Below are positions 7,044 to 62,583 of a stretch of DNA of 64,000 nt, one piece after another. The stretch is taken from assembly GCA_013314775.1 (NCBI GenBank), contig JABUFB010000003.1:106622-170621 (forward strand), written 5' to 3'. The DNA comes from Armatimonadota bacterium (lineage in GTDB: Bacteria > Armatimonadota > Zipacnadia > Zipacnadales > JABUFB01). The translations under genes were made by a program, and so were the position numbers. Numbering within the stretch: the stretch's first letter is position 1; each line of letters opens with the position of its first letter. Below the pieces are notes generated by a model, which made no database searches, was not told the origin of the DNA, and worked only from the letters and a program-made list of their open reading frames with translations.

Positions 7044-7290
7044 CCGAAGGCCCCCAGCCCCGTGCTTCAGCGCGGGGCCAAAGGGCCAGCGCGACACCCG
7101 CGCTGTTTTCTCGTCCGAAGGCCCCCAGCCCCGTGCTTCAGCGCGGGGCCAAAGGGCCAGCGCGACACCCGCGCTGTTTTCTCGTCCGAAGGCCCCCAGC
7201 CCCGTGTTCAGCGCGGGGCCAAGGGGCCAGCGCGACACCCGCGCTCATTTCTCGTCCGAAGGCCCCCAGCCCCGTGCTTCAGCGCGGGAC
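7044..7290. repeat. tandem array of ~3.5 copies of a 71-bp hairpin-forming unit
   Basis: Unit ccgaaggcccccagccccgtgcttcagcgcggggccaaagggccagcgcgacacccgcgctgttttctcgt starts at 7044, 7115, 7186, 7256. Contains hairpin ccccgtgc-ttca-gcgcgggg. Confidence 0.85.
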
Positions 7291-7389
7291 GGCAAAGCTA
7301 TCAGCACGGGAGCCGAAGTTCCTCAAGCACTCCGTGCGTCATCCCGAAGTAACAGACACGGAAACCTTCCGAGAAGGTGGAGGCGCAAC

Positions 7390-11376: not shown

Positions 11377-11536
11377 TTTTCGCGCAACTTCATTGCTCCC
11401 CCGCGAGCCCGGGGAGCTGAGTATCCTGCGGCTCCGCTCGAACTCGGGCGGAGCCGCGTTGTATTTCGAGAAGCCTGCCCGAGCTTGTGCATCCGCAATC
11501 GCCGGCCGAATCCGCCAAACATTTCCAGGGTGACGC

Positions 11537-13201: not shown

Positions 13202-13280
13202 AAACAAAATCGAGGCCTGCACGCGATTGCCGGCCCCGATCCGTCCTGCTTCAGTCACCCCTGATGACGCCGCACTGCCT

Positions 13281-14192: not shown

Positions 14193-14224
14193 GGTGTTTC
14201 CCCTCCTGGCTGCCGCTGGACCGG

Positions 14225-21003: not shown

Positions 21004-21171
21004 ACAACGCAAGAGCGGCCGGGCGGGACCCGTGTCAGGGTGCCGCCCGGTCTGTTCGCATTGCAGTCCCGGCCCGCGGCCGTTCCGCACGCCTCGCCTG
21101 TGTGCCTTGAGCCCTGGTGCGCGGTGTGGTACATTCCCCCCACCATAGCCTATCGACAGGAGCCGCTTGAC

Positions 21172-23966: not shown

Positions 23967-24117
23967 TGTTCAACATCTCCTTTGGGGTCTCTTCCCGCCG
24001 AGGCGGGCCTTGCGGCTCGGCTCACCATACCTTCGCTATGCGGCGTCCAGTCCCCTGCAAAGGGTTGCGGGGCATCGGCAGGGAATGAGCTATGAACTCG
24101 TGGTGGAGGTACCACTC

Positions 24118-35305: not shown

Positions 35306-35494
35306 CGCGGACCCCCTGGACCCGAAATCGCGCACGAGCGGCTCGGCGCCCTCACTGCCTTCGGGAGGTGCCGGGCCGGCAGTCGCGGCATATTCTCCAC
35401 AGGAATGCGGTTCGCAGTTGCAGGGCAGAGTTCCTTCCCTGCGGCTCACGCTGGAGACCTGACGGATGCCGTTCCGATGCAGGGGAGCCCTTTG

Positions 35495-43758: not shown

Positions 43759-44008
43759 GGGAGCTCCTCCGGGTTGCGCGGGTTCAATGGCGCACAGAGT
43801 TGGATTCGGCACCCATCGCGGCTTTCCTGCGTGGTGGATCTTTGTGGCTCGGGCCGATCTTGCGCACATGCTGTGGGAATCGTTCCGTCGATGGGGTATG
43901 ATGGCCGGGTGACGATGGGTGGCGGTGCCGGCACCACGGCACACCAGGCGGAGTTTGGTGTGGCACCCACCCGTTGGCCAGCCAGGAGCATAGCAGGAGG
44001 CCCGTGCC

Positions 44009-44647
44009 TTGACCACTGACAGCCAGAACCGTTTCGACCGTGCCGCCGCAACCTGGGACCTCAATCCGCAACGTATCCAGCTTGCGATGACCACTGCGGA
44101 CGCCATCCGCGAGGCCGTGCCCGTCGGGCCGCATATGACCGCGCTTGAGATCGGCTGCGGTACCGGACTGGTGACGTATCCCCTCAGTGCGCATCTGAAG
44201 TCGATCCTCGCTGTGGACACGTCCGAGGAGATGCTGAAGATTCTCGGGGAGAAGATGGCCCAGCTGGGCGTCAGGAATGTGACGCCTCTCAAGGCGGATC
44301 TGACCCGAGACGACCTGCCCGACAGCGACTTCGACCTGATCTTCAGCGCCATGGCAATGCACCACATCCCGGACCCGGCCGGGATGATCCGGCGCGTAGC
44401 GGGACTGCTGAGACCTGGCGGCGCCCTTTGCATTGTGGACCTGGACTCCGAGGACGGAACCTTCCACGGGGACTCGGAGGCGGTGTACCACCATGGCTTC
44501 GGCGCTGAGGAGATGCAGGGGTTCTTCGCACAGGCGGGGCTGGTGGAGTTGAGGTCAGAGACGGTGCATGTCTTCGAACGCCCGGGCGCAGACGGTGTGT
44601 TACGGGAATACGGTGTGTTGATGACTGTGGGGAGAAAGGCGGGGTAG
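44009..44647 (+). CDS. class I SAM-dependent methyltransferase
   Basis: ORF track (TTG start, RBS AGGAGG). Motif I LEIGCGTGL; ALCIVDLD. Confidence 0.75.
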   Translation: MTTDSQNRFDRAAATWDLNPQRIQLAMTTADAIREAVPVGPHMTALEIGCGTGLVTYPLSAHLKSILAVDTSEEMLKILGEKMAQLGVRNVTPLKADLTRDDLPDSDFDLIFSAMAMHHIPDPAGMIRRVAGLLRPGGALCIVDLDSEDGTFHGDSEAVYHHGFGAEEMQGFFAQAGLVELRSETVHVFERPGADGVLREYGVLMTVGRKAG

Positions 44648-44794
44648 AGGAGCAATTGCAGGCAACGCCTGCGGATCCCGCCCGGAGCTTGGCCTTCGCC
44701 AAGACCGGTGGCGCCCCGGCCCCTGGAAGGTCTCGCGACCTGTGCCCGGAATATCCTGCCACCTGCACCTCGCCGTCCCCCGGAGGAAACTGCC

Positions 44795-46246
44795 TTGCGC
44801 GAAAAGTGGTGCATCATCCTCGTGCTCGCCTGTTTGACCTGCTCACGGGCCGCTGCTCCGGTGTATTTCGTGGATGCGGTCTCCGGCGATGACTCCAACT
44901 CCGGGCGTTCGCCGGCGGGGGCCTGGAAGACTCTCGCCCCGGTGAACGCGCTGCAACTGGAACCCGGCAGCCGGATACTCCTGCGCGCAGGCGGCGAATA
45001 CGAGGGCCCGCTGAACCTGACGGGTTCTGGCGCACTCGGCAGCCCGAACACCGTGGGGAGCTATGGCGAGGGACCGAAGCCCCATATCCTGCGGGGGCCG
45101 GGATCAGGGCCGGTGGTCTCGCTCTACAATGGCTCGCACTGGGAGATCGCCGACCTGGAGATCAGTGGCGGAACCATCGGCGTGTTCGCGTACATGAAGG
45201 AGTTCGGCATCGCCAGAAGCCTACACTTCCGGCGGCTGGACATCCACGACGTGCGCGGGAGCCTCACCGGTGATGACGGCGGGTTCCTGCTGAAGCGCGA
45301 GGGCGAGGAGACGTGGTTCGACGACCTGCTCATCGAGAACTGCACCATCGAACGCGTCGACAGAAACGGGATTCTGCTCACCGACTACCCCACCGCGAAG
45401 GATACCCATCACAGCACGGGGGTTGTGATCCGGGGCAATCACCTGCGGGACATCGGCGGCGACGGCATATTCATACTCGGCTGCGACGGCGCGGTGATCG
45501 AGCACAATGTGCTGCGCTACGCCCACCAGAGAGTTGGGCGCAGGCCGGGCGAGCGTGCCTGCGCAGGGATCTGGCCCCACCGCTGCAATGACACGCTGAT
45601 CCAGTTCAACGAGGTCAGCCACACTGCGGTCGGTGGCGTGACGGTCTGGGATAGCGAGGCCTTCGACGACGATGTGAGCTGTCGCGGCACGGTCTTTCAG
45701 TACAATTACAGCCACCACAACGCCGGGGGGTTCCTGCTCATGTGCGCGGGCTCCAGGGGCACCATTGTGCGTTACAATGTGAGCGAGAACGATGCGGTGG
45801 CCACCTTCACACTGGAGAGCGACGGGACCGGCGGGGCCACCATCCATAACAATACCATCTACGTGGGCCCGGAACTGTCGGTGACCCTCTTCCGCAACAC
45901 CTCCGGCGCCCCGGATACCCTGCGGTTTGTGAACAATATCGTCCACGCAGACGGCCAGATGGTGCACAGTCCGCGGGGCATCACCGGGATTACCTGCAGC
46001 AACAATGCGTGGTTCGGGAACATACGGAACCGGCCAGAGGACCCCGCGGCGATCCTGTCCGAGCCAGGGCTGATCGCGCCGGGCACAGGCGGCGAGGGTT
46101 TTGGGACCATCGGCGGGTACCGGCTTGTCCCGGACTCTCCTTGCCGGGGAGCAGGCACTGCTGTGCCGGGTGATCCGGGCATTGACCTGTTTGGCAATGC
46201 CCGACCCGACGGCGGAGGGCCTTGGGTCGGCGCATGTCACGGCTGA
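44795..46246 (+). CDS. secreted right-handed beta-helix repeat protein
   Basis: In frame with ORF 44708..46246; start set at TTG 44795 after RBS GGAGG. Repeated rungs (IENCTIERVD, VIRGNHLRDIGGDGIF, IEHNVLRYA, IHNNTIYVG). Confidence 0.65.
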   Translation: MREKWCIILVLACLTCSRAAAPVYFVDAVSGDDSNSGRSPAGAWKTLAPVNALQLEPGSRILLRAGGEYEGPLNLTGSGALGSPNTVGSYGEGPKPHILRGPGSGPVVSLYNGSHWEIADLEISGGTIGVFAYMKEFGIARSLHFRRLDIHDVRGSLTGDDGGFLLKREGEETWFDDLLIENCTIERVDRNGILLTDYPTAKDTHHSTGVVIRGNHLRDIGGDGIFILGCDGAVIEHNVLRYAHQRVGRRPGERACAGIWPHRCNDTLIQFNEVSHTAVGGVTVWDSEAFDDDVSCRGTVFQYNYSHHNAGGFLLMCAGSRGTIVRYNVSENDAVATFTLESDGTGGATIHNNTIYVGPELSVTLFRNTSGAPDTLRFVNNIVHADGQMVHSPRGITGITCSNNAWFGNIRNRPEDPAAILSEPGLIAPGTGGEGFGTIGGYRLVPDSPCRGAGTAVPGDPGIDLFGNARPDGGGPWVGACHG

Positions 46247-48261: not shown

Positions 48262-48562
48262 GCCCTTTGCCTCACAGCCCGCGAAGCGGGCGACAGCTCA
48301 TAGCCGCGGGTGGAGTGGAGCGAAGCGGAACGGAGCCCGTGGAATCGGGGCACTTCAGGTCGCTTGAGCCCCCGGGGGGGGCGACAGAAATGATGAGAAC
48401 GCCGGGCGGTTGTGACGCCGGCTTCGCGGGCTGTTGTGGAAAGGCTCAAGGCAAAGGGCTGGCTGAACGCGGATTTGGGATTAGCCGGCACGCATCCAGG
48501 AGGACCGATGCTCTTTCGACGGCCTGTGAGTCTTGACACGCCCTGCACCTTGGCAATATACT
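48262..48562 (+). repeat. conserved promoter-proximal element, copy B
   Basis: cctcacagcccgcgaagcgggcgacag ... aATGATGAGAACgCCGGGCGGTTGTG ... caaagggc ... agccggcacg, as in copies A and C. Confidence 0.6.
48533..48562 (+). promoter_or_regulatory. sigma70-like promoter TTGACA-18-TATACT upstream of yceD
   Basis: -35 at 48533-48538, -10 at 48557-48562, ~60 nt before yceD. Confidence 0.5.
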
Positions 48563-48620: not shown

Positions 48621-49130
48621 ATGCAATACCGGATTCTCGCGACGCTATCCAAGCCGCAGGGGCGAGTCCGGTGCGAAATTGACGCACCGGCACCCTATGG
48701 CGCGGGCGGGGAGTTCGTGGGTCCGGTGATCGGATATGTGGAACTTGAGAATGCCGATTCCCTCGTGACCGCGCGGGGCCGGTTGCATGCGACTGCGGTC
48801 TTGCCGTGCAGCCGTTGCCTTGCCGATCACGTCGTGGAGCTGGACGCTGAGGTCTATGAGCAGTGCTCGTTGACCCAGATTGACGAGCCTTCGATGTGGG
48901 AAGCCGGCACGGAGGAGCCTATCCCGCTTCTGAGTGGCGACCTGGTGGACCTGAGTGAACTGGTCCGGCAGGTGTTGGTCCTCAATGTGCCGTCGCGTTC
49001 CTTATGCCGGCCCGACTGTGCGGGCTTGTGCCCCCGATGTGGCAGGAACCTGAGCGACGGACCATGCGGCTGCGGCGAGGACGACGTGGATCCGCGCTGG
49101 GCCGGGCTTCGCGATCTCATCGACGACTGA
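48621..49130 (+). CDS. yceD: YceD/DUF177 family protein
   Basis: ORF track. C-terminal Cys motifs CSRCL and CAGLCPRCGRNLSDGPCGC; followed by rpmF. Confidence 0.8.
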   Translation: MQYRILATLSKPQGRVRCEIDAPAPYGAGGEFVGPVIGYVELENADSLVTARGRLHATAVLPCSRCLADHVVELDAEVYEQCSLTQIDEPSMWEAGTEEPIPLLSGDLVDLSELVRQVLVLNVPSRSLCRPDCAGLCPRCGRNLSDGPCGCGEDDVDPRWAGLRDLIDD

Positions 49131-49559: not shown

Positions 49560-50573
49560 ATGCTCATAGCTCTGGATGCCATGGGCGGGGACTTGGCCCC
49601 CGACGAGGTTGTGCGCGGCGCCTTGCTGGCTGCGGACTGCCTTGAATCACAGGTGGCGCTCTGCGGCCAGGAAGACAGGATTCGCGCGCTTATCGCCGGT
49701 CACGCGGGAGCCGATCGGATGATCATCCGCCCGGCCACCGAGATCGTCGAGATGGAAGACAGCCCGCGCGTCGCTCTGCGCGGCAAGCCGGATTCCTCGG
49801 TTGCCCGCACCGTTGAGATGGTTCTCTCCGGTGAAGCCCAGGCGTGCGTCTCCGCCGGCAACAGCGGCGGGTTCATGGCCCTGTGCCACACGCGGTTGAA
49901 AACGATCCCTGGCATTGCCCGGCCGGCCATCGCGCTTTTCCTGCCCACGAAGCACGGCCCGCGGATCTTGCTGGATGCCGGCGCCAATGCGGACTGCAAA
50001 CCGGAATACCTGGTGCAGTTTGGCCTCATGGGCAGCATCTACGCCGAGTTCGCGCTGGGCATGAAGGCGCCGCGGGTGGGTTTGCTGAGCATCGGCACCG
50101 AGGCGCACAAGGGCAACGAACTGACCCAGGCCGCCATGCCGCTCATGGAGAAGGCCCCGATCAACTTCATCGGGAATGTAGAGGGCGACCAGGTTTTCGC
50201 AGACGATGACGTGGATGTCATCGTCTGCGACGGTTTCGTTGGCAATGTGGTACTGAAGGTTGCTGAGGGTGTCGCGGGTACGCTGGTTGACGTCCTTCGC
50301 ACCGGCATCAAACGCAGCGCGTGGGCGAGGATGGGCATGCTGTTCATGCGCGGCCCGTTCAAGGCGCTGCGAGATCTCTTCGACTATGGCACGTACGGCG
50401 GGGCGCTCTTACTGGGTGTCAACGGCATCTGCGTCGTCAGCCACGGTAAGTCTGACGCCTTCGCCATCAAGAACGCCTTGCTTGTTGCGGAGCGCGCGGT
50501 GAAGGGCCGGGTGGTGGAGCACGTCCGCGATACCTGCCGGGAGCTGTTCCCCGAGGCGTCTGTCCCTGCCTGA
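49560..50573 (+). CDS. plsX: phosphate acyltransferase PlsX
   Basis: ORF track. MLIALDAMGGD..., SAGNSGGFMA, ILLDAGANADCKPE. Confidence 0.9.
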   Translation: MLIALDAMGGDLAPDEVVRGALLAADCLESQVALCGQEDRIRALIAGHAGADRMIIRPATEIVEMEDSPRVALRGKPDSSVARTVEMVLSGEAQACVSAGNSGGFMALCHTRLKTIPGIARPAIALFLPTKHGPRILLDAGANADCKPEYLVQFGLMGSIYAEFALGMKAPRVGLLSIGTEAHKGNELTQAAMPLMEKAPINFIGNVEGDQVFADDDVDVIVCDGFVGNVVLKVAEGVAGTLVDVLRTGIKRSAWARMGMLFMRGPFKALRDLFDYGTYGGALLLGVNGICVVSHGKSDAFAIKNALLVAERAVKGRVVEHVRDTCRELFPEASVPA

Positions 50574-50725: not shown

Positions 50726-51715
50726 ATGGAAGTTCGAGGCGCTTGTATCAAAGGTCTTGGCGCGTACGTGCCTGAGCGCGTGCTCACAAACCAGGACCTG
50801 TGCGACATCGTTGACACCAGCGACGAGTGGATCGTCGAGCATACGGGCATCCGTGAGAGGCGCATCCTCGCCGATGATCAAGCCAGTTCCGACCTGGCCT
50901 TCGAGGCAGCCCGCAAGGCCCTGGAGAACGCGGGCATCAGCGTCGATGATCTGGACATGATCATCGTTGCAACGATCACTCCGGACATGCCTTTCCCCGC
51001 AACTGCCAGCATCGTCCAGGACATGCTGGGCGCCAAAGGTGTCGGCACCTTCGACGTTGTGACCGGCTGCACCGGTTGGGTGCAGGCGCTGGTGACCGGC
51101 TCGCAGTATATCCAGACCGGGGCGGCTGATCACGTCCTGGTGATCGCTGCCGAATCCCTGACGCGCATCACCAACTGGACCGATCGCTCGACCTGCGTGC
51201 TCTTCGGTGATGGGGCCTGTGCCGCTGTTCTCGGGCCATGTGCGCCCGGGCAGGGGCTCTTGGCCTTCGCCATGGACACCCAGGGCGACTCTGCCGAACT
51301 CCTGATGATCCCCGCGGGCGGCAGCCGCACCCGCCTCACCCCCGAAGCTCTCGCGGACTACCAGCACCTGCTGCAGATGGACGGCCACGAAGTCTTCAAG
51401 CTCGCAGTGCGCGGCGTGCCGGAGATCGCGCGGCGCTGCATGGAGAAGGCCGGCCTGGAGATGTCGCAGGTTGACGTCTGCGTTCTGCATCAGGCGAATC
51501 TGCGGATCATCGATGCCGCGGCGAAGCGGCTGGACATCCCGTACGAGCGCATGGTCATCAACCTGGATAAGTACGGGAACACATCGGCGGCTTCAGTGGG
51601 TATCGCGCTGGATGAGTACGCGCGGGAGACAGGTCTCAAGCCCGGGGACGTCGTCCTGCTGGTTGCCTTCGGGGCCGGCTTCAGCCTCGCTTCCGCTGTC
51701 TTCCGGTGGACTTGA
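50726..51715 (+). CDS. fabH: beta-ketoacyl-ACP synthase III FabH
   Basis: In frame with ORF 50675..51715; start set at ATG 50726. Active-site region VVTGCTGWVQAL, HQANLRII, YGNTSAAS. Confidence 0.9.
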   Translation: MEVRGACIKGLGAYVPERVLTNQDLCDIVDTSDEWIVEHTGIRERRILADDQASSDLAFEAARKALENAGISVDDLDMIIVATITPDMPFPATASIVQDMLGAKGVGTFDVVTGCTGWVQALVTGSQYIQTGAADHVLVIAAESLTRITNWTDRSTCVLFGDGACAAVLGPCAPGQGLLAFAMDTQGDSAELLMIPAGGSRTRLTPEALADYQHLLQMDGHEVFKLAVRGVPEIARRCMEKAGLEMSQVDVCVLHQANLRIIDAAAKRLDIPYERMVINLDKYGNTSAASVGIALDEYARETGLKPGDVVLLVAFGAGFSLASAVFRWT

Positions 51716-51864: not shown

Positions 51865-53013
51865 ATGGATTTCAGCTTCACCGAGGAACAGCAGGAGATC
51901 TTCGACGCCGTTGACGAGATCTGCGCCGACTTCAAGGCGACCGCTTGTGAGGTCGATGAGGCTGGCGAGTACCCTTGGGACAACATCAAGGTCATGGCCG
52001 AGTGTGACCTGTTCGGTGTGCCGGTTCCCGAGGAATGGGGCGGCATGGGCATGGGCTTCCTGGAATGGGGAGTCATCGGCGAGAAGCTGAGCGCTGCCTG
52101 CACCACCACCGGGGCCGTCTACGCTGCCCACATGCTGTGCATGTACCCGATCATGGCCTTCGGCACTGACGAGCAGAAGGACAAGTATCTGCGCGACCTG
52201 GCCAGCGGCAAGAAGATCGGCGCCATGGGTCTCACTGAGCCCAACGTGGGTTCCGATGCCGGCTCCGTCCAGACGCGTGCCGAAAAGCGCGGCGACAAGT
52301 ACATTCTCAACGGCACAAAGATTTTCATCACCAATGGCGGGGACGCGGAGACCTACGTGGTCGTAGCCAACAGCGCGCCTGATCGCGGGACCCGTGGTCT
52401 GACGGCTTTCATCCTCGAGAAGGGCATGCCCGGTTTCTCCTTCGGCAAGGATGAGAAGAAGATGGCGTACAACTCTCTGTCCAACCGCGAACTGATCTTC
52501 GAGGACTGCGAAGTTCCCGCGGAGAACGTGCTGTACAAGGAAGGCCGGGGCTTCCGCGTGGCCATGGATCTGCTGGACATCGGCCGCATCGGTATGGCTG
52601 TGGGCGCGGTTGGTCTTGCCCAGGCGGCGTACGATTGCGCCGTGCAGTATTCGCTGGTGCGCGAGCAGTTCGGGAAGAAGATCAGCGAATTCCAGGCCAT
52701 CCAGTTCCACCTCGCGGACATGGCCACCGACATCGAATGTGCCCGGTTGCTCGCCTACCAGGCCGCATGGATGAAGGATCAGGGCCTCCCCTTCAGCAAG
52801 CAGGCCGCGATGGCCAAGCTGTACGGTTCCGAAGCGGTCTCTCGCGTGTGCTCCAAGGCTGTACAGATTCACGGCGGACACGGCTACACCTGCGAATACC
52901 CGGTGGAGCGGTACATGCGCGAAGCCAAGCTGTTTGAGATCGTGGAGGGCACGTCCGAGATCCAGCGCGGCGTCATCGCCCTCGCCCTTCTGCGCGAAGC
53001 CATCAGCAAGTAA
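51865..53013 (+). CDS. acyl-CoA dehydrogenase (short-chain / butyryl-CoA dehydrogenase-like)
   Basis: ORF track. [16 protein letters not shown]..., [48 protein letters not shown]. Confidence 0.9.
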
Positions 53014-53087
53014 ATGCCGAACAACAGCGGGTCAGGCGTCGGGGGAGACGATCTCACGGCGCCGGGTCCTTGACGAGGGCTTACAGC

Positions 53088-53870
53088 ATGAAGATCATCG
53101 TCTCGATCAAGCAGGTGCCGGACACCACCGAAGTGCGCATCAACCCGGAAACGGGCACCCTCATGCGCGACGGCGTCCCCAGCATCATCAACCCCTTCGA
53201 CGAGAATGCCATCGAGGCCGCGCTCCAGCTCAAGGAGGAGCATGGCGGTGAGGTAACCGTCATCACCATGGGGCCGCCGCAGGCCGAGGAAGCCCTGCGT
53301 CAGGCAATCGCGATGGGCGCCGACAACGCGCTGCTCTTGTGCGACCGCGCCTTCGCTGGAAGCGACACCCTCGCCACCGGCTATGCCCTCTCCCAGGCCG
53401 TACGCAAGATCGGGGATTTCGATTTGATTCTCTGCGGCAAGCAAGCTTTCGACGGAGACACCGCGCAGGTACCGCCCGGCCTTGCCGAACAGCTTGGCAT
53501 CCCTCAGGTCACCTACGCCATCGAAATCAAGGTGGACGGTAAGAAGGTCCGGGTCAAGCGGCTGCTGGACGACCGGTTCGAGGTGGTGGAGGCGCCGATG
53601 CCCTGTTTGATCACGGTGGTCAAGCAGATCAACGAGCCGCGCCATGCGGGGCTCAAGGGTGTCATGAAAGCACGCAAGGTCGAGATCCCGTGTCTCACAG
53701 CGGAAGACGTCGGTGCGGACCTTGAGCGCTGCGGTCTGTCGGGTTCGCCCACAAACGTCATGCGGGTGTTCGCCCCCAGCCACGACCACAAGGCCGAGAG
53801 GCTGGAGGGCGATGTGCCCGACGTGGCGCGCCAACTGGTGAGCCGGCTGCGGGATGCCAAGGTTCTCTGA
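53088..53870 (+). CDS. etfB: electron transfer flavoprotein beta subunit
   Basis: In frame with ORF 53070..53870; start set at ATG 53088. MKIIVSIKQVPDTTEV..., NPFDENAIEAAL, LILCGKQAFDGDTAQV. Confidence 0.85.
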   Translation: MKIIVSIKQVPDTTEVRINPETGTLMRDGVPSIINPFDENAIEAALQLKEEHGGEVTVITMGPPQAEEALRQAIAMGADNALLLCDRAFAGSDTLATGYALSQAVRKIGDFDLILCGKQAFDGDTAQVPPGLAEQLGIPQVTYAIEIKVDGKKVRVKRLLDDRFEVVEAPMPCLITVVKQINEPRHAGLKGVMKARKVEIPCLTAEDVGADLERCGLSGSPTNVMRVFAPSHDHKAERLEGDVPDVARQLVSRLRDAKVL

Positions 53871-53931
53871 ACAGGGAGCCGCAAGCCGGCCCCGACCCGT
53901 GGGGCGGCAAATCCACGCTACAGGGATCACA

Positions 53932-55128
53932 ATGTCTATACACATCGATGTCGATAAGTGCGTCGGCTGCAAGGTCTGCATCAGCGCCTGCCCGTACGGG
54001 GCGATCGTGGTTGAGGACGGCAAGGCTCGCTTCACCGAAGATTGCACGGGTTGCGGCGCCTGCGCATCCTCCTGCAAGTTCGGCGCAATCATCCTCGAAG
54101 TACCGAAGATGGCCGACGTGGACACCAGCGCCTACAAGGGCATTTGGGTCATCGCCGAACTGCATGACGGCAAGCTGGCCGACGTGTCGCTGGAACTCCT
54201 GGGCGAGGCATCCCGCCTTGCAGCAGACCTGGGTACGGATGTGTCTGTCGCGATCGTGGGCGAGTCCGTGGAGGCTCTCGTTCCCACGGCCGCTGCCCAT
54301 GGAGCCGACCGGGCGTACATCGTGGAGCACGAGGTGCTCTCGCAGTACCGCACCGGGCCCTTCAGCGACGTGCTCACCGGGCTGATCAACACCCACAAGC
54401 CCGAAATTGTCCTGTTCGGCGCAACGCCCATGGGCCGGGACCTTGCCAGCCGTATCGCCGCGCGCATCGGAGCGGGCCTCACCGCGGACTGCACCGGGCT
54501 GGATATCGACCCGGAGACCAAACTCCTGCGCCAGACCCGCCCGGCGTTCGGCGGCAATATCATGGCGACGATCCTGTGCAAGCAGGCTCGCCCACAGATG
54601 TCCACTGTGCGCCCACGCGTCATGAAGAAGATCCCGCCGCGCGAGAACGCCCAATGTGAGATCGTGCGCACCCAAGTGAATCTCAACGAGAAGGCAGTCC
54701 TCACCAAGATCATCGAGGTCATTCAGGAAGAGGGCGGCTCGAAGGTGAACCTGCAGGACGCCGAGATCATCGTCTCCGGCGGCCGCGGGATCAAGAAGGC
54801 TGAGAACTTCGCGCTGATTCGCGAGCTGGCCGATGCCCTGGGCGGCGTTGTGGGCGCGTCCCGCGCAACGGTGGATGCCGGCTGGATCCCCGCTTATCAC
54901 CAGGTCGGTCAGACCGGAAAGACCGTCCAGCCCAAGCTCTACGTGGCCTGCGGCATCTCCGGCGCAGTCCAGCACCTCGCGGGCATGTCCTCCTCCGACA
55001 CCATCGTGGCCATCAACACCGACCCGGACGCGCCGATCTTCAAGGTGGCGCATTACGGGATCGTTGGCGACCTGTTCGAGGTCATTCCGGAACTCGTGAA
55101 GGCGCTCAAGGAGGAATTCGGCAACTAG
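53932..55128 (+). CDS. etfA: electron transfer flavoprotein alpha subunit with N-terminal 2x[4Fe-4S] ferredoxin domain
   Basis: In frame with ORF 53854..55128; start set at ATG 53932. [12 protein letters not shown] and [12 protein letters not shown], then a standard EtfA body ([21 protein letters not shown]). Confidence 0.85.
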
Positions 55129-55155: not shown

Positions 55156-56082
55156 ATGATCGCTTACGTCTTCCCCGGCCAGGGCTCGCAGTTCGCGGGC
55201 ATGGGCAAGCAGATCGCGGGCGAATCCGCCATCGCGGAGGAAGTGTTGCGCGTGGTGGATGACGCCCTGGGCTTCTCCCTCACCGAGATCATGTTCGGCG
55301 AGGACGCCGACGCGCTCACACCCACCGAGATCCAGCAGCCCGCTATTTTCGCACACAGCGTGGCAACCTTCGCGGCGCTGCGCAAACGGCACGCGGAGGG
55401 GCCCGCGCTGGTGGCCGGCCACAGCCTGGGAGAGTACTCGGCAGTGGTCGCGGCAGGGTGTCTGGAGCTTGAGGAGGCAGCGCGCCTGGTGCGTAAGCGG
55501 GGCGAGCTGATGGCCGCCGCCGCAAGCCAGGTAGGCGGGGCAATGGCCGCGATCCTGAAGATGGAAACCGCGGACGTCGAGCAACTCGTTCAGGATGCGG
55601 CCGGCGAGGGCGTCCTGAGTGTTGCGAATTTCAACAGCCCGGGTCAGGTGGTTATCTCCGGCGAAAAGGCCGCGGTAGACGCCGCCTGTGCGCTGGCCAA
55701 GGAGCGCGGGGGACGGAGCATCCCGCTCAAGGTCAGCGGCGCCTTTCACTCCCCGCTCATGGCCCCTGCCGCAGAGATGCTCAGGCCGGAGCTCGAGGCC
55801 GTGCACCTGTCCGACGCGACAGTCCCGATAGTCTCCAACGTGGACGCCACGGCGCGCACTGAGGCAGACGGGATTCGCCAGGCGCTGATCCATCAGGTGA
55901 CGGGGAGCGTGCGGTGGGAGGACTCAGTCCGGACGATGATTGCTCAGGGTGTGGACTGCTTTGTAGAAGTCGGGCCGGGTAATGTGCTGGCGAAGCTGAT
56001 CGAGCGCATCGACAGCAACGTGCGCGTGGCCAGTGTCGGCACGCTGGCGGAGATCAATGCGTTCGTGGAATCACTGGGCTAA
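55156..56082 (+). CDS. fabD: malonyl-CoA:ACP transacylase FabD
   Basis: ORF track. MIAYVFPGQGSQFAGMG, active-site GHSLGEYSA. Confidence 0.9.
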   Translation: MIAYVFPGQGSQFAGMGKQIAGESAIAEEVLRVVDDALGFSLTEIMFGEDADALTPTEIQQPAIFAHSVATFAALRKRHAEGPALVAGHSLGEYSAVVAAGCLELEEAARLVRKRGELMAAAASQVGGAMAAILKMETADVEQLVQDAAGEGVLSVANFNSPGQVVISGEKAAVDAACALAKERGGRSIPLKVSGAFHSPLMAPAAEMLRPELEAVHLSDATVPIVSNVDATARTEADGIRQALIHQVTGSVRWEDSVRTMIAQGVDCFVEVGPGNVLAKLIERIDSNVRVASVGTLAEINAFVESLG

Positions 56083-56120: not shown

Positions 56121-56861
56121 ATGGATCTTGACGGAAAAATCGCAGTCGTAACCGGAGCCGGCGGACTGATCGGCCGCGCAATTGCCCTGACGCTCGCGGG
56201 CGATGGAGCGGATATTGTGGTGAATGATCTGGTGGAGGAGACCGCGAAGGAAACCGCCGCGATGGTGGAAAACCTGGGGCGCAAAGCACTGGTCACCGTT
56301 GGCAGCGCTGCGAAGGTGGAAGACGTTGAGAGCATGGTGGAGCAGACGCTGGACCGGTTTGGCCGGCTTGACATCATGATCAACAATGCGGGGATTACCC
56401 GCGACGGCCTGCTGGTGCGCATGAAGGATGAGCAGTGGGACCTGGTGCTCGACGTCAACCTCAAGAGCGCATTCCTGTGTACCCGTGCGGTTGCCCGGCC
56501 GATGATGAAGCAAAAGAGCGGGCGCATCGTGAACATCGCGTCGGTCGTGGGTGTTATCGGGAACGCGGGGCAGGCCAACTACTCCGCTTCGAAGGGCGGC
56601 TTGATCGCCTTGACGAAGACCACCGCGAAGGAGCTTGCCAGCCGCAACATCCTGTGTAATGCGGTGGCGCCCGGCTTTATCGAGACCCCGATGACCCACC
56701 AGCTCAGTGAGGAGGCCCGCAGCGAATGGCTGAAGGGGATTCCGCTGGGCCGGCCGGGAACGGCCCAGGATGTGGCCGACGTGGTGGCCTTCCTGTGCGG
56801 CCCCAGGTCGTCCTACCTGACCGGGCAGGTAATCAGCATCTGCGGTGGAATGGTTATGTAG
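56121..56861 (+). CDS. fabG: 3-oxoacyl-ACP reductase FabG
   Basis: In frame with ORF 56094..56861; start set at ATG 56121 (RBS GGAGGT). VTGAGGLIGRA, NNAGI, YSASKGG. Confidence 0.9.
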   Translation: MDLDGKIAVVTGAGGLIGRAIALTLAGDGADIVVNDLVEETAKETAAMVENLGRKALVTVGSAAKVEDVESMVEQTLDRFGRLDIMINNAGITRDGLLVRMKDEQWDLVLDVNLKSAFLCTRAVARPMMKQKSGRIVNIASVVGVIGNAGQANYSASKGGLIALTKTTAKELASRNILCNAVAPGFIETPMTHQLSEEARSEWLKGIPLGRPGTAQDVADVVAFLCGPRSSYLTGQVISICGGMVM

Positions 56862-56961: not shown

Positions 56962-57204
56962 ATGGCACTGTTCGAGAAGGTCAAGGAAGTCATCGTGCGC
57001 GAGCTTTCCGTGCCCGAAAGCAAGGTCACCGAGAACGCCTCGTTTGATGGCGACCTGAGCGCCGACTCGCTGGACGTTGTTGAGCTCGTCATGGCTCTCG
57101 AGGACGAGTTCGACGTGGAGATTCCGGAAGAAGACGCCGAGAAGATTCAGACCGTGGGCGACGCCGTGCGCTATCTCGAGGCCAAACTTGGCGGCGAGGC
57201 ATAG
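56962..57204 (+). CDS. acpP: acyl carrier protein
   Basis: ORF track. 80 aa; phosphopantetheine site [20 protein letters not shown]. Confidence 0.95.
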
Positions 57205-57332: not shown

Positions 57333-58145
57333 GTGAAGGGCCCCTGTCAGGTCTGTGGCTCGACCGACATCCGTGACTACGTGAAGCATGAGGAGGGTCA
57401 CTACCTGCGCTGCGCCGGCTGCGGGCTGGTCGTAAACGCAGATGCTGACGAGTTGGCGGCCCGGTCCGTCGAGCACTACGACGACGAGGCCTACTTCCAG
57501 AACTATCAGCTCCGCACGGCCAGGAAAACCCGCTCCGCGGCTCGTCGGATCAGGATCATCCGCAGGTACGTGCCGTCAGGGCGTCTGCTGGATATCGGCT
57601 GTGGTGTCGGAGAGACACTGATCGCCGCCCGCGATGCGGGCTTTGAGCCCGTGGGCCTCGACGTCGGCAAGTACCCGGTCGAGCACTGTCGGGGCCTGGG
57701 GTTCGAAGTTCACCGGGCTTCAATCACCCGGACCGGCCTGCCCGACGATAGCTTCGACGTAGTGACCATGTGGGATGTGATCGAGCATATCCCGCGCACC
57801 AGCGAGGGGCTGCGGGAAGTTCGGCGGATACTCAAGCCGGGCGGTCTTGCCGCCATCATCACTCCATCGTGCGAGTATCTGCGCGCCCACCTCTGGCGTC
57901 AGACGTATCGGGGTTACCGCGGGAACTGGGCAAAGACTCATCTTGTGTACCATCACTCCCGCACGCTGGACCGGGTCCTGCGGGAGTGTGGTCTTGTGCC
58001 GGTGCCAGGGGCTGCGCTCTATGCGACTACCCTTCCGGGCTTCCTTTTCGAAAGCGCGCGGTCGGCATTGCGGCTGACCAAGAATCTGTTTGTGTTGGCC
58101 CGAAAGGAAGCCGGGCCGGCGGGACGCGAAAACGTTGAGGAATAG
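57333..58145 (+). CDS. class I SAM-dependent methyltransferase with N-terminal CxxC...CxxC zinc ribbon
   Basis: ORF track (GTG start). CQVCGS...CAGCG; motif I LDIGCGVGE; LKPGG. Confidence 0.7.
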   Translation: MKGPCQVCGSTDIRDYVKHEEGHYLRCAGCGLVVNADADELAARSVEHYDDEAYFQNYQLRTARKTRSAARRIRIIRRYVPSGRLLDIGCGVGETLIAARDAGFEPVGLDVGKYPVEHCRGLGFEVHRASITRTGLPDDSFDVVTMWDVIEHIPRTSEGLREVRRILKPGGLAAIITPSCEYLRAHLWRQTYRGYRGNWAKTHLVYHHSRTLDRVLRECGLVPVPGAALYATTLPGFLFESARSALRLTKNLFVLARKEAGPAGRENVEE

Positions 58146-58155
58146 GAGAGTAAGC

Positions 58156-59397
58156 ATGTCCCACCGAGTCGTCGTGACAGGTATCGGTTGTGTGTCGTCG
58201 GTTGGGCATTCTCTGGAGGATGCCTGGTCCGCGGCCCTTGAGGGACGCACAGGCATCAAGACCATCTCCATCTTCGACACTACCGACTACGACGTGCACA
58301 TCGGCGCGGACATTCCAGACTGGGACCCCACCCAGTACATGGATGGCAAGGAAGCCAAGCGCTGCGACCGCTTCACGCAGTTCGCCATTGTGGCTGCCGA
58401 CCAGGCGATAGCCCAGGCCGGGCTCAAGATCACCCCCGAGAACCAGTATGACGTGGGCGTCATTTGCGGTTGCGGAATCGGCGGCATGTGGACCTGGGAG
58501 GAGCAGTACACGAAGCTCATCACCAAAGGTCCGGGCCGAGTATCGCCCTTCCTGGTCCCGGTGATGATCGTGGACATGGCTGCCGGGATGATCTCCATGC
58601 GCACGGGCGCCAAGGGCCCGAACTACGCGACTGTGAGCGCCTGCGCCAGTGCAACCCATGCCATTGGGAACGCATTCGAGACCATTAAGCACGGGACTGC
58701 GAGAGCCATCATCACCGGCGGCACTGAAGGCGCGATCTCTCCCACCGGACTCGGCGGATTCTGCGCTGCGAAGGCCCTGTCCACCCGCAATGACGAGCCT
58801 GCCACAGCGTGCCGTCCCTTCGACAAGACCCGGGACGGTTTCGTCATGGGCGAGGGCGCCTGCATCATCATTCTGGAGGAACTGGAGTTCGCCCGTGCAC
58901 GGGGAGCCAATATCCTCGCGGAGATCGTTGGCTACGGGATGACCGCGGACGCATACAATATGGTGGCCCCGGATCCATGCGGGGAAGCCGCCGCCAGGGC
59001 GATGCTGACCGCCATCGATGAGGCCGGACTGTCCGTCACCGACATCGACTACGTGAACGCCCACGCCCCGGGAACGCCGGGCGGAGATGATATGGAGGCC
59101 CGAGCCCTGCAGTTGCTGTATGAGGGCAAGAACTACTCCCCCATGGTCAGCTCGACCAAATCCGTCCATGGGCACATGCTGGGCGCGACGGGTGCGATGG
59201 AGCTGGCACTGTCCATCAAGATGATGCAAGAGGGCATTGTGCCCTTGACCCTCAACTGCCACGAGCCGGATGATGACATCTGGATTGATGTTGTCCGGGA
59301 GGAGCACCGCTCAGCCCGGATCGACACCCTCATGAGCAATTCCTTCGGCTTCGGTGGGCACAACGCGGTCGTCGTCGCGCGGCGTTACGAGGAATAG
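58156..59397 (+). CDS. fabF: beta-ketoacyl-ACP synthase II FabF
   Basis: In frame with ORF 58090..59397; start set at ATG 58156 (RBS AGGAGAG). Catalytic Cys in ATVSACAS; His motifs NAHAPGT and HGHMLGATG. Confidence 0.9.
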   Translation: MSHRVVVTGIGCVSSVGHSLEDAWSAALEGRTGIKTISIFDTTDYDVHIGADIPDWDPTQYMDGKEAKRCDRFTQFAIVAADQAIAQAGLKITPENQYDVGVICGCGIGGMWTWEEQYTKLITKGPGRVSPFLVPVMIVDMAAGMISMRTGAKGPNYATVSACASATHAIGNAFETIKHGTARAIITGGTEGAISPTGLGGFCAAKALSTRNDEPATACRPFDKTRDGFVMGEGACIIILEELEFARARGANILAEIVGYGMTADAYNMVAPDPCGEAAARAMLTAIDEAGLSVTDIDYVNAHAPGTPGGDDMEARALQLLYEGKNYSPMVSSTKSVHGHMLGATGAMELALSIKMMQEGIVPLTLNCHEPDDDIWIDVVREEHRSARIDTLMSNSFGFGGHNAVVVARRYEE

Positions 59398-59431
59398 CGC
59401 CGCGCACGGAGGCCCCTGCGAGGTCTACTTC

Positions 59432-60196
59432 TTGGCTTCAGACCGGCCGGACCAAGGGCAGCGGGCCGACCCGCTGCACGATGAAGCGCGCTGGCAGGCG
59501 GTGCGAGAGAAACTCGGCCTGCCCGAAACCGTTTCGCTGCAGACCCTCGCGGCCGCCTTCACGCACACCTCCTTCGCCCGCGAAGCAGGCTTGGGGCCCT
59601 GGGTGGCCAACCAGCGCCTGGAGTTCCTGGGTGACGCCGTTCTTGATCTGATCCTGGTCGAACACCTCTACCGCGCCTACCCCACTGCTCCCGAGGGCAA
59701 TCTCACGAAGATGAAAGCGTACGCGGTTCGCGCCAGCACGCTGGCCCGGGTCGCGCGTCAGCTGGGGCTGGGTGACTACATGCTCCTGGGCAAGGGTGAG
59801 GAGGATACCGGCGGCCGCGGCAAGACATCACTTCTGGAGGACTGCATGGAGGCCGTGGTGGGTGCGGTCTATCTGTCCACTGACCTTGAGACTACCCGCA
59901 GATTCGTGATGACCGTGTTCGAGCCTGTGCTCGAGGCGATGACCAGCAGCGAGCTGGTCTACGACCACAAGACAGAACTCCAGGAGCTTCTGCAAGAGCG
60001 GACGAAGCAGACGCCTTCTTACGTGACCGTGGACACCATCGGGCCGGCCCATGAACGGACCTTCGTGGTGGAGGTTCGCTTCCGTGGAATGACCATTGGA
60101 TCCGGTGAAGGGCCAAGCAAACAAGCCGCCCAGCAACAGGCGGCCCGGGAGGCTCTCGATAACCGCGACTGCTGGCTGCCCGAGCTTCCGACCTGA
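59432..60196 (+). CDS. rnc: ribonuclease III
   Basis: In frame with ORF 59354..60196; probable TTG start at 59432. Signature ERLEFLGDAVL; C-terminal dsRBD. Confidence 0.85.
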   Translation: MASDRPDQGQRADPLHDEARWQAVREKLGLPETVSLQTLAAAFTHTSFAREAGLGPWVANQRLEFLGDAVLDLILVEHLYRAYPTAPEGNLTKMKAYAVRASTLARVARQLGLGDYMLLGKGEEDTGGRGKTSLLEDCMEAVVGAVYLSTDLETTRRFVMTVFEPVLEAMTSSELVYDHKTELQELLQERTKQTPSYVTVDTIGPAHERTFVVEVRFRGMTIGSGEGPSKQAAQQQAAREALDNRDCWLPELPT

Positions 60197-60217: not shown

Positions 60218-61687
60218 TCAGTCAGGGCGAGCTCCCATCCGCGCGGTTGGCAGCATACCATCCAGGTCCACCAACACCAGCCTCACTGCGCCTGCCACCC
60301 TCCGCGCCAGATAGACACTCCCGCTTGGTCTCGCGCTCAGTGATACAGCGCCCAGGTCCGGCACGTCCACGGAGACCCCTTGCGTCGGGCCGTCAGCAGC
60401 CCACGCCACCAGGAGCCACTCCGGCCGCTCCCTGTGCTTCCGCGCAAGCACCCGCACCTGATTCGAGCCCGTGGGCAGCTCGTACGCCGGCAGGTCCTTT
60501 GACCACACGTGCCGGTTAGGTCCGGGCAGGAGTTCACTCTCCCGAACGAACTGCTCCAGGTGCGAGAACAGCGCCTGCACATGCCCCAGGCACATGAGTT
60601 GCCAGATCCAGTTGTCCACCGGATCATAAGCGAAGTACCCGGCCACACCACCAATCATCCCCGCCGTGTAGTAGCATTTCAGATAGCCCATGTACCGTTC
60701 CGCATCAGACATCGGCGGGTTGGGTCTGCCGGTGTCCGGCCAGCCCGGGTTCATCCAGTTGTACGAGAGCGGCTGGCCTGCGGCGATGTGCTGGGCGGTG
60801 GCGTTGAGGGCTTGGGTGAGAGCGTCATTGTCCCCCGACCAGCCGGAGTTGAAATGCTTCCAGTAGATCGAGCTGCTGGGCAGGTCCGACACGGGCTTCA
60901 TGAAAGCATAGTCCCACGTCCACTGCCACCAGTTCGCATAGCGGTCCCGGTGGGGGCAGCCCTCGGTGGGGTAGTAGACGTACGTGAGCCGGTCGGGGAC
61001 CAGTTCGCGGATGCGCTCGGTGATGATCATCTCCTGGTGGGCCTTGCGCTCGGAGATGTATTCGAACCAGTCGCGGTCTCCCCGCGCTGCGACGACCTTC
61101 GGGTCCTTCTCCCAGTACTTCAGGTGATGCCCGACGGTGCTCAGACCGTACTCGCCGCCGTTGGTGATGACCGCGACGGGCGCCAATGCCAGCACCTGCT
61201 TGAGCATGTTCGCCTCGTAGTCGGCGATCATGTCGAAGGTACTGTCCGGCGCCTCGGGGCTGAAAATGCGCTGGCCGTCAGGAAGCCGGCCGTTCTCGTC
61301 AGTGCACCAGGTCTCGGCCGGAAGTTGATCGGTGAAGTCGCGGATCGAGAACGCTGGGGCGATGGTGACATGCAGCGGGTAGCGCTCGGGGTTCTCGGCC
61401 GCAAGCGCGCAGACCTTCGCTTCGACGCTTGCAGGATCACTCAGGCGCGCCAGCATGTCAGGGCGAATGCGCCCGAACTGGAGAGCATATCCCCAGTTCT
61501 CGCACAGCTCCCGGCGGATCTCCAGGCTGAACTCGGGTCCCCAGGTGGTGAGAGGGATGAGGGTGTGGCCTTCGCGAAAGACGGGCTTCGGGCCAACGCG
61601 AAGTTGCTCGAGCGCGGTGGCGGTGAAGGCTGCTGGAAGCCACACGAGCAAGACGAGCAGGACAATGGCAGGACGGCGCATCTTCAT
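60218..61687 (-). CDS. secreted hypothetical protein
   Basis: In frame with ORF 60218..61702; start at ATG 61687 or 61681 (RBS AAGGAG); signal peptide MKMRRPAIVLLVLLVWLPAAFTA. Trp/Tyr-rich; no family recognised. Confidence 0.5.
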   Translation of the reverse strand: MKMRRPAIVLLVLLVWLPAAFTATALEQLRVGPKPVFREGHTLIPLTTWGPEFSLEIRRELCENWGYALQFGRIRPDMLARLSDPASVEAKVCALAAENPERYPLHVTIAPAFSIRDFTDQLPAETWCTDENGRLPDGQRIFSPEAPDSTFDMIADYEANMLKQVLALAPVAVITNGGEYGLSTVGHHLKYWEKDPKVVAARGDRDWFEYISERKAHQEMIITERIRELVPDRLTYVYYPTEGCPHRDRYANWWQWTWDYAFMKPVSDLPSSSIYWKHFNSGWSGDNDALTQALNATAQHIAAGQPLSYNWMNPGWPDTGRPNPPMSDAERYMGYLKCYYTAGMIGGVAGYFAYDPVDNWIWQLMCLGHVQALFSHLEQFVRESELLPGPNRHVWSKDLPAYELPTGSNQVRVLARKHRERPEWLLVAWAADGPTQGVSVDVPDLGAVSLSARPSGSVYLARRVAGAVRLVLVDLDGMLPTARMGARPD

Positions 61688-61725
61688 CACGCTCCTTGAC
61701 ATCGAGAGTTAGATTCGCGCACCGT

Positions 61726-62583
61726 TCACGCGTCCTGGAAGGCGCCAGGGACGGCCCAGGCGGCTCGCTCGGCCTGTGTGAACGCCGGGAAGGCGTAGTA
61801 GAACCAGACCAGTGCGAACAGAGCGGTCGCGGCAGCGGTCATGGCGAGAATTGCGTTCAGGTAAGCCTCTGGATCAGTCTCCTGAAGCCCTCGGAACAAG
61901 TCCTCGATGATGAGGGTGGGGACAAGTACCCCCACCAGCGCCATGAGCGGGGGCGCGATCCGGGCCCGTGTCGCCCTCTGGATGCGGCTGCGTCCACGGT
62001 TCATGGCACCGGACAGAGCCTTGCCCTCCACTGTTACCACCTCGCCGCCATGCATGCGCACCAGGGTCTGCAGCGCCTCCAGCACGGGAGCCTTCACGGC
62101 GCGCTCTGACCATACCGCGCACGTGATCCCGTCACGGTCCTCCCACTCCAGCCAGAACCGGCGGCCATGCACCAGAAGCCGGCGCAGTTGGGCCGGCGGG
62201 ATGGTGAACGCGTCCGAGACCCCGGCGAGACTCACTCCACCCGGCCCCACCGCAATCCAGCGCAGACCCCTCGGGCCGCTGCGCGCCAGGAACGAGTCGT
62301 CGCTGGTCCCTACATGCTCGCGCGCGATGCGGCGCAGGTCGTTGGTCATGCCGGAGAGCATCAGGAAGGGAAGCAGGAAGACGACGGCCACGATCACCAA
62401 CACCGCGGCCACGACACCACCAGGGATGTCCCCGCCCCACTGTCTCTGAAGCAGCCACGCGATGAGTAAGCGCAATGAGGCGACCCAGAGGAATGCCAGG
62501 GCAACCACAACGAGGGTGATCTTGCCGGCGCGGTCGAAATGAGTGGTCAGCTTCGCCCTCAGCGGGTCAAGGGTTGCGTTCAT
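61726..62583 (-). CDS. hypothetical membrane protein
   Basis: ORF track; several hydrophobic segments; no family recognised. Confidence 0.45.
   Translation of the reverse strand: MNATLDPLRAKLTTHFDRAGKITLVVVALAFLWVASLRLLIAWLLQRQWGGDIPGGVVAAVLVIVAVVFLLPFLMLSGMTNDLRRIAREHVGTSDDSFLARSGPRGLRWIAVGPGGVSLAGVSDAFTIPPAQLRRLLVHGRRFWLEWEDRDGITCAVWSERAVKAPVLEALQTLVRMHGGEVVTVEGKALSGAMNRGRSRIQRATRARIAPPLMALVGVLVPTLIIEDLFRGLQETDPEAYLNAILAMTAAATALFALVWFYYAFPAFTQAERAAWAVPGAFQDA

Follow-up and report, generated by a model that had tools for sequence, protein, structure and literature searches.

Bacterial fatty acid synthesis varies most at the reduction of the enoyl-acyl carrier protein (ACP) intermediate, a step that is also a major target of antibiotics. 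Known enoyl-ACP reductases are FabI, FabL, FabV, FabK and InhA, of which FabK (enoyl-ACP reductase II) is an FMN-dependent enzyme of the NMO family. Genomes without a recognizable enoyl-ACP reductase have long been noted. Two described complexes, the butyryl-CoA dehydrogenase complex Bcd-EtfAB of clostridia and the caffeyl-CoA reductase CarCDE of Acetobacterium woodii, pair an acyl-CoA dehydrogenase (ACAD) with a bifurcating electron-transferring flavoprotein (Etf). Here, we analyze a 64,000-nucleotide stretch from an Armatimonadota bacterium (assembly GCA_013314775.1, contig JABUFB010000003.1, positions 106,622 to 170,621 of the forward strand; hereafter, the window), in which genes for an ACAD-family flavoenzyme, EtfB and a ferredoxin-domain EtfA (together, the triad) lie inside a fatty acid synthesis (fab) cluster.

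We lean, by a narrow measure, toward the view that, in type II fatty acid synthesis, the triad serves as an enoyl-ACP reductase that is coupled to Etf and probably reduces ferredoxin. It would stand in place of FabK or FabI, here and in related uncultured anaerobes. We infer that the carrier is ACP rather than CoA, and likewise the direction of the reaction, the coupling to ferredoxin and the lack of another enoyl-ACP reductase. A preliminary description of this DNA had proposed a comparable function, which our analysis partly supports: the case is strengthened but not proven. In the searchable literature, neither an enoyl-ACP reductase of the ACAD-Etf kind, nor an acyl-ACP dehydrogenase acting with Etf, nor this gene arrangement was found described, and the paper describing Zipacnadia and Hebobacteria makes no mention of fatty acids, ACADs or Etf.

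The triad lies between fabH and fabD

The + strand of the window carries the gene order yceD-rpmF-plsX-fabH-[ACAD-EtfB-Fd::EtfA]-fabD-fabG-acpP-(methyltransferase)-fabF-rnc. The ACAD gene (51865-53013) matches PF02771, PF02770 and PF00441, all above their cutoffs. EtfB (53088-53870; PF01012), the small Etf subunit, is of the bifurcating group, with CarD (6FAH_B) and 5OL2_B as its best PDB matches, and the CarE-like EtfA (53932-55128; Pfam Fer4, Fer4_7, ETF and ETF_alpha) has an N-terminal 2x[4Fe-4S] ferredoxin domain. The preliminary description had placed three such same-strand genes at these coordinates, between yceD-rpmF-plsX-fabH and fabD-fabG-acpP-fabF-rnc. Pfam and NCBIfam bear out both the triad and its flanks, and the profile-HMM assignment that had been suggested as a check returned the ACAD, ETF and Fer4 families.

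The genes are tightly spaced, with gaps of 149 bp (fabH-ACAD), 74 bp (ACAD-EtfB), 61 bp (EtfB-EtfA) and 27 bp (EtfA-fabD), and the ACAD ATG is preceded by a Shine-Dalgarno sequence, GGGAGG. The best sigma-70-like site of the region (11/12 matches, 48533-48562) is just upstream of yceD and is the sole strong promoter-like site. No terminator-like site was seen in the intergenic gaps from fabH to fabF, and total numbers of promoter- and terminator-like sites were no higher than in shuffled sequence. An isolating promoter or terminator, which the preliminary description had named, jointly with a canonical reductase elsewhere in the genome, as counting against its proposal, does not separate the triad from the fab genes. 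One inverted repeat with a 15-bp stem (50197-50230, +), inside plsX, was flagged as terminator-like and is probably coding-sequence structure.

The cluster opens with yceD (48621-49130; PF02620), followed on the same strand by rpmF for ribosomal protein L32 (49279-49488; PF01783), plsX (49560-50573; PF02504, 330 bits) and fabH for β-ketoacyl-ACP synthase III (50726-51715; TIGR00747, 391 bits, above cutoff), whose start ATG at 50726 matches the gene call in locus L001. Downstream of the triad are fabD for malonyl-CoA:ACP transacylase (55156-56082; TIGR00128, 331 bits), fabG for 3-oxoacyl-ACP reductase (56121-56861; TIGR01830, 319 bits), acpP for ACP itself (56962-57204; PF00550) and fabF for β-ketoacyl-ACP synthase II (58156-59397; TIGR03150, 562 bits), with the fabD, fabG and fabF scores all above cutoff. 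The conserved block ends with rnc, for RNase III (59354-60196; TIGR02191, 228 bits), the start codon of which is uncertain.

Between acpP and fabF is a gene for an S-adenosylmethionine-dependent methyltransferase (57333-58145, +; Pfam Methyltransf_23/11), which the preliminary description had omitted, as it had the recurrence of the arrangement in many divergent genomes. This gene stops 10 bp ahead of fabF, and its product shows weak matches to DVU_1556-family and BioC-type methyltransferases. It is seen only in the closest relatives, L002 and L125 (83% identity), and is therefore probably outside the core system. A lipid or malonyl-ACP might be the target of the enzyme.

The ACAD belongs to a distinct subfamily

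The closest PDB structures to the ACAD are those of Bcd from A. fermentans (4L1F, 402 bits) and C. difficile (5OL2_C, 389 bits), at ∼52% identity. The three-domain ACAD architecture (N-terminal, middle and C-terminal) is present, and Glu361, invariant in the subfamily described below, aligns with the catalytic E376 of medium-chain acyl-CoA dehydrogenase (MCAD), the numbering of which was validated against PDB 1EGE. In C. difficile Bcd, residues F155, E198, E210, T343, D345 and Y346 contact Etf domain II and bridge the FADs (PMC5691135). Their equivalents here are F154, E197, E209, T342, E344 and Y345, and we count them as conserved.

Among NCBIfam models, AcrC (NF042972) and AcrA (NF042970) are the best matches for the ACAD and EtfA, while for EtfB the top model is EftB (333 bits), with AcrB (NF042971) second. 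The scores for AcrC, AcrB and AcrA (431, 264 and 381 bits) fall below the respective cutoffs (640, 475 and 600), indicating that the proteins are not AcrABC members and that the module belongs to no described equivalog. Models for ACADs that act on carrier proteins also scored below cutoff: MbtN gave 59 bits (cutoff 700), PigA 245 (500) and RedW 250 (650). In databases, the proteins carry the generic labels acyl-CoA dehydrogenase or butyryl-CoA dehydrogenase.

A signature emerged when the ACAD and its nearest relatives were set against 108 Bcd-like sequences from Firmicutes and five ACADs of solved structure. Gly is replaced by D48, Tyr by W68, the universal S-x-T by L205 and N207, Ile and Gln by M244 and G247, and T-Q-I-Y, directly ahead of the catalytic Glu361, by F357-E358-I-V360 (V or I at the last position); the helix E segment is shorter by one residue. 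A DNA pattern for the F-E-I-V(-E) motif, run against metagenome contigs, recovered 120 loci. The signature positions outside the scan pattern were invariant or nearly so in 36/36 full-length sequences, which cover all context types (see below).

In a neighbor-joining tree, the subfamily was monophyletic in 30/30 bootstraps. Within the genome collection, sequences of 64–97% identity came only from metagenome-assembled genomes (MAGs) labelled Armatimonadota, Zipacnadia, Hebobacteria, WS1 or uncultured bacterium; the next relatives were from one NPL-UPA2 MAG (58%) and then from Firmicutes (≤54%). A type C member (see below), used as query, matched proteins bearing the NCBI label Candidatus Poribacteria and, in one case, Nitrospirae. 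Judged by sequence, the ACAD is a member of a distinct and widespread subfamily found in Armatimonadota, Poribacteria-like, NPL-UPA2 and other uncultured lineages.

The substrate pocket is predicted to be enlarged

We related positions in MCAD to those in LCAD (the long-chain acyl-CoA dehydrogenase) by an offset of 36, taken from the known equivalence of LCAD Glu291 and MCAD Thr255, which also fits LCAD Tyr411 and MCAD Tyr375. The residues lining the acyl cavity of LCAD include I295, V298 and Y411 (PMC10925408), and several signature positions fall on these three. The subfamily carries A/S, G/A, G and V/I at MCAD positions 96, 99, 262 and 375, whose LCAD counterparts line the cavity; the Bcd-like proteins have V, S, Q and Y there. 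The helix E segment of the subfamily is MCAD-like rather than Bcd-like in length. The smaller residues and the helix E length suggest a cavity larger than that of the C4-specific Bcd, as would be needed by an enzyme handling C4 to C16-18. The Lys/Arg at the entrance that binds a CoA phosphate (R424 of LCAD) is present in 89 of the 108 Bcd-like homologues and in no member of the subfamily. In most members (12/16 in the genome set), a nearby Glu, at MCAD position 243, is replaced by Arg. No feature of the sequence proves ACP specificity.

Two of these differences were considered as markers of the substrate. Loss of the R424 equivalent was not taken as proof of a non-CoA substrate and is suggestive only, since C. 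difficile Bcd lacks the residue as well. The change of Y375 to V was rejected as an ACP-substrate marker, because the motif K-L-F-E-I-V-E-G-T is also found in a distant ACAD family (37–39% identity) whose genes occur as tandem pairs. Loci of this family include L175 (633-11930), L109, L118, L122, L123, L147 and others. The L175 cluster contains genes for an acyl-CoA synthetase, an ABC transporter, a short-chain dehydrogenase/reductase (SDR), an enoyl-CoA hydratase and a thiolase, and the tandem ACADs may together make up a CoA-dependent, heteromeric dehydrogenase that acts on a bulky acid.

The Etf subunits resemble bifurcating Etfs

Against CarE and CarD (6FAH), EtfA and EtfB scored 412 and 270 bits, and the alignment of EtfA with 6FAH_A spans residues 1-392, thus including the ferredoxin domain. 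The relatives that follow CarDE are all bifurcating: the Etfs of C. difficile Bcd-EtfAB, of Thermotoga EtfABCX, of Acidaminococcus and of the lactate dehydrogenase complex from A. woodii. Scores against the other four bifurcating Etfs in the PDB were 352/253, 316/224, 294/241 and 287/230 bits (EtfA/EtfB), and for EtfB the match to 5OL2_B (253 bits) was second to that to CarD. Non-bifurcating, AMP-binding Etfs scored ≤179 bits (EtfA) and ≤118 bits (EtfB), less than half of the bifurcating best. By whole-sequence similarity, the Etf falls in the bifurcating group (group 2).

The N-terminus of EtfA contains two CxxCxxCxxxC motifs, with eight Cys in all, aligned with CarE residues 1-60, and a ferredoxin domain is present on EtfA in most subfamily members. 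The preliminary description had likened this EtfA to CarE, and CarE is indeed its best structural relative. The broader likeness that had been drawn to clostridial Bcd/EtfAB and to CarCDE holds as well, the module being a Bcd/CarCDE-type complex.

Linkage to fab genes recurs at three junctions

Across relatives, the triad adjoins fab genes in three arrangements. Type A, plsX-fabH-[triad]-fabD-fabG-acpP-fabF-rnc, is that of high-GC Armatimonadota; it accounts for 10 of the 14 subfamily loci in the genome collection (ACAD at least 58% identical) and for 12 metagenome loci, and it is also seen in L083-L085. The gap between EtfA and fabD in type A has a median of 24 bp and a minimum of −8 bp, with several cases of overlapping reading frames. 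FabD is only ∼50% identical among type A genomes, and genes beyond the block vary between genomes, indicating that the block itself is the conserved unit. In type B, fabG-acpP-fabF-[triad], found in low-GC, NPL-UPA2-like lineages, the gap between fabF and ACAD is −4 to 17 bp. Type C, yceD-(rpmF)-plsX-fabH-fabD-fabG-acpP-fabF-rnc-[triad], is Poribacteria-like and is represented by nine metagenome loci and L208; here the gap between rnc and ACAD is as small as 18 bp.

A collinear cluster in Halonatronum saccharophilum, yceD-rpmF-x-plsX-fabH-NMO(FabK)-fabD-fabG-acpP-NMO-fabF-rnc, has FabK between fabH and fabD, from which it follows that the triad of type A holds an enoyl-reductase slot. A second NMO-family gene of this organism (L082, 9203-10171), 33% identical to the one in the FabK slot, lies in the acpP-fabF interval, the same position as the methyltransferase gene of the window.

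Fab-linked and unlinked members are interleaved in the tree. Type B groups with low-GC unlinked members (28/30 bootstraps) and type A with high-GC unlinked members (23/30). Neighbors of the unlinked high-GC (Hebobacteria-like) loci are variable, and the low-GC unlinked lineage has the order ftsH-folP-ruvC-[triad]-proS-nusA-infB-DUF503-truB-ribF, a housekeeping setting.

Genes for β-oxidation partners were looked for beside the triad and in control loci. Thiolase and 3-hydroxyacyl-CoA dehydrogenase were found in 0/99 subfamily loci (875 kb), crotonase not being searched for separately. For the control loci of the nearest Firmicute homologues, one or the other adjoins the ACAD in 53/66 cases, and both do so in 41. 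The role in β-oxidation that the preliminary description had kept as its alternative is disfavored by these counts.

Several further features of the loci were recorded. L086 (GCA_030615855.1, low-GC) has the order fab cluster-rnc-ACAD-DUF1189-EtfB-FdEtfA (11237-14936), with its own fabH-fabD slot empty. We rejected it as an additional fab-linked example; its ACAD is conventional (YEG, SxT; 52% identity) and outside the subfamily, and the arrangement may be an independent recruitment or a coincidence. The triad stays together despite unrelated genes inserted in or beside it in L207 (11517-13298), L208 (11280-12134 and 12883-13507), L086 (12400-13170) and L085 (6554-6970), the inserts being a UvrD helicase, a TaqI_C-domain protein, a ParE-like toxin pair, DUF1189 and a GNAT acetyltransferase. 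Type A loci L005, L006 and L007 have two tandem acpP genes (e.g. 9261-9491 and 9599-9823 in L005), one copy ∼85% and the other ∼60% identical to the window ACP. In L015 (NPL-UPA2), a gene with an SCP2 sterol/lipid-carrier domain (11153-11524) directly follows fabF-ACAD-EtfB-EtfA. In L061 (Niallia oryzisoli), a conventional ACAD-EtfB-EtfA set has, ∼3 kb upstream of it, a FabI-like gene (4241-5014) that shares 40% identity with FabI of E. coli.

Conventional enoyl-ACP reductases were not found near the triad

Pfam scans of the window's larger remaining open reading frames (ORFs), with three very large ORFs and several small ones left out, revealed FabG as the only SDR and no protein of the NMO/FabK or FabV type. 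FabK, FabI and FabZ had no tblastn match in the 64 kb, and neither FabK nor FabI was seen in any subfamily locus (∼875 kb of loci checked). These results agree with the statement in the preliminary description that the window has no FabI/FabK/FabL/FabV-type reductase. Of the genes for which a search of the complete genome was called for there, fabI, fabK, fabL and fabV were looked for in the window and the subfamily loci and fabZ in the window, and none was found in these. The triad proteins themselves match the ACAD, ETF and Fer4 families only, with no SDR- or NMO-fold homology; as an enoyl-ACP reductase, the triad would be an analogue of FabI, FabL, FabV and FabK rather than a member of any of these groups. 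An LpxL-type acyltransferase (Pfam; 21040-22134 of the window) suggests lipid A synthesis and with it a need for type II fatty acid synthesis.

Other features of the window

A gene at 1796-2965 (−) encodes an aldo/keto reductase fused to a C-terminal 2x[4Fe-4S] ferredoxin-like domain, and hence another ferredoxin-linked oxidoreductase. Three very large ORFs with coding-like GC3 lie at 24010-28185 (+), 31826-36544 (−) and 40087-45051 (−), with 1391, 1572 and 1654 codons for amino acids, respectively. The ORFs at 691-1650, 7204-9966, 60218-61702, 61726-62583 and 62608-63783 had no Pfam match.

A proposed mechanism

By analogy with Bcd-EtfAB and CarCDE, NADH would pass its electrons to the bifurcating FAD on EtfB. 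The swinging FAD of EtfA would relay one electron to the FAD of the ACAD. After two rounds, trans-2-enoyl-ACP would accept a hydride from the ACAD FAD and a proton from Glu361. In each round, the second electron would exit to ferredoxin via the two [4Fe-4S] clusters in the N-terminal domain of EtfA. Reduced ferredoxin would thereby be gained in each elongation cycle, instead of the potential drop of enoyl reduction being lost. The electron path proposed here is taken from that of Bcd-EtfAB (PMC5691135).

The full form of this proposal, a bifurcating ACAD-EtfAB that reduces enoyl-ACP with NADH while making reduced ferredoxin, and so a sixth and unrelated solution to the enoyl-ACP reductase problem, we rate at somewhat short of an even chance.

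Alternative roles of the triad

Several observations weigh against an enoyl-ACP reductase. More metagenome loci lack adjacent fab genes than have them (33/58 versus 25/58 of those assessable), and vertical inheritance could be part of the reason why the arrangement is conserved within Armatimonadota. The rest of the genome may hold a separate fabI, fabK or fabV; the fabI gene of E. coli likewise sits outside its fab cluster. The absence of the entrance Lys/Arg from C. difficile Bcd also belongs here, as does the setting of the distant family with Y375 changed to V, which is a CoA-type β-oxidation cluster. Finally, EtfA has no ferredoxin domain in type B and in some of type C.

Part of this evidence would fit an ordinary bifurcating dehydrogenase/Etf of energy metabolism, acting on butyryl-CoA or a longer acyl-CoA, with its placement among fab genes an accident kept by vertical inheritance. 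Such an enzyme could reduce crotonyl-CoA in fermentation or serve syntrophic acyl-CoA oxidation. The best family-level matches, Bcd and AcrC, are both CoA-substrate enzymes, relatives are labelled butyryl-CoA dehydrogenase in databases, and CoA phosphates could still be held by Arg177 and Arg231, both of which are retained. The lack of fab linkage in over half of the metagenome loci would be expected as well, and the carriers are seemingly anaerobes, being MAGs from digesters and sediments, with genes for a glycyl-radical enzyme and rubrerythrin beside the L208 triad. However, an accident would have to account for three distinct fab junctions in three subclades, with reading frames overlapping or nearly touching. 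The thiolase and 3-hydroxyacyl-CoA dehydrogenase counts (0/99 versus 53/66), the scores under the AcrA, AcrB and AcrC cutoffs and a cavity unlike that of the C4-specific Bcd also argue against this explanation, and we consider it unlikely in either of its variants. A related idea, that the triad supplies short acyl-CoA primers such as butyryl-CoA to FabH, gains some appeal from type A, where the triad directly follows fabH. Yet the triad follows fabF or rnc in types B and C, genes for forming crotonyl-CoA are not found nearby, and the cavity appears enlarged rather than C4-like; there is very little chance that this idea is correct.

The linkage to fab genes is compatible with any ACP-dependent role, and the reaction might therefore be oxidative: either a backtracking of acyl-ACP to trans-2-enoyl-ACP for anaerobic synthesis of unsaturated fatty acids, like that of FabX, or a dehydrogenase (or reductase) step in the making of a special lipid. 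Precedents exist. The FabX flavoenzyme of H. pylori dehydrogenates acyl-ACP within type II fatty acid synthesis (PMC8626469), and carrier-protein ACADs are represented by MbtN, PigA/RedW and AnaB. These are weak matches here, with MbtN at 59 bits against 431 for AcrC. The Etf, moreover, is of the NADH-using bifurcating type with a ferredoxin domain. Given redox potentials of about −10 mV for the enoyl/acyl couple, −320 mV for NAD and about −400 mV for ferredoxin (PMC5691135), oxidation of an acyl thioester cannot drive NAD or ferredoxin acceptors under normal conditions. Nearby genes encode no Etf:quinone oxidoreductase or CCG-type Fe-S oxidoreductase, one of which is present in Bacillus sonorensis L048, and there is no adjacent isomerase gene. 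The potentials and the lack of a quinone-linked partner nearby disfavor an oxidative role, which we regard as improbable. Enoyl-ACP reduction coupled to Etf is the reading we retain.

Significance

If the function is confirmed, Bcd/CarCDE-type machinery has been recruited to fatty acid synthesis, and the triad represents a new class of enoyl-ACP reductase. This would explain how fatty acid synthesis is completed in several candidate phyla. Flavin-based electron bifurcation would, for the first time, be seen as part of an anabolic housekeeping pathway, and the ∼300 mV by which the potential falls in enoyl reduction would go into making reduced ferredoxin. Energy would then be recovered in each elongation cycle in uncultured anaerobic phyla (Armatimonadota, Poribacteria-like, NPL-UPA2 and others), and fatty acid synthesis in these organisms would be insensitive to inhibitors directed at FabI or FabK. 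The invariant signature permits annotation of the subfamily now.

Comparison with known systems

CarCDE of A. woodii (6FAH) is like the triad in its composition: an ACAD-family reductase and the two Etf subunits EtfB and EtfA, the latter bearing a 2x[4Fe-4S] ferredoxin domain at its N-terminus. It differs in that CarC is only the 14th-best match to the ACAD (301 bits). CarCDE reduces phenylacrylyl-CoA in caffeate respiration, whereas the triad lies in or beside fatty acid synthesis clusters. Bcd-EtfAB (5OL2; 4L1F/4KPU) provides the closest structures for the ACAD, with which the triad shares the Etf-docking residues and the catalytic Glu. Unlike Bcd-EtfAB, the subfamily has its own invariant signature, including Gly in place of Gln at MCAD position 262; it lacks thiolase and 3-hydroxyacyl-CoA dehydrogenase neighbors, and most members carry the extra ferredoxin domain. 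AcrABC, the propionyl-CoA dehydrogenase-Etf that acts as acryloyl-CoA reductase in Clostridium propionicum, is near the triad by NCBIfam, with all scores below the cutoffs.

FabX, the decanoyl-ACP dehydrogenase/isomerase of H. pylori, shows that an enzyme with flavin and a [4Fe-4S] cluster can operate at the enoyl/acyl-ACP step (PMC8626469). It has the NMO/FabK fold and no ACAD-Etf, and it works oxidatively, for unsaturated fatty acids. FabK resembles the triad in two respects, the position between fabH and fabD (Halonatronum saccharophilum) and the proposed function. The two are unrelated in sequence and fold: FabK is a single TIM-barrel protein that uses NADH directly and has no link to ferredoxin, while the triad would do the same work with three proteins of the Bcd/CarCDE type.

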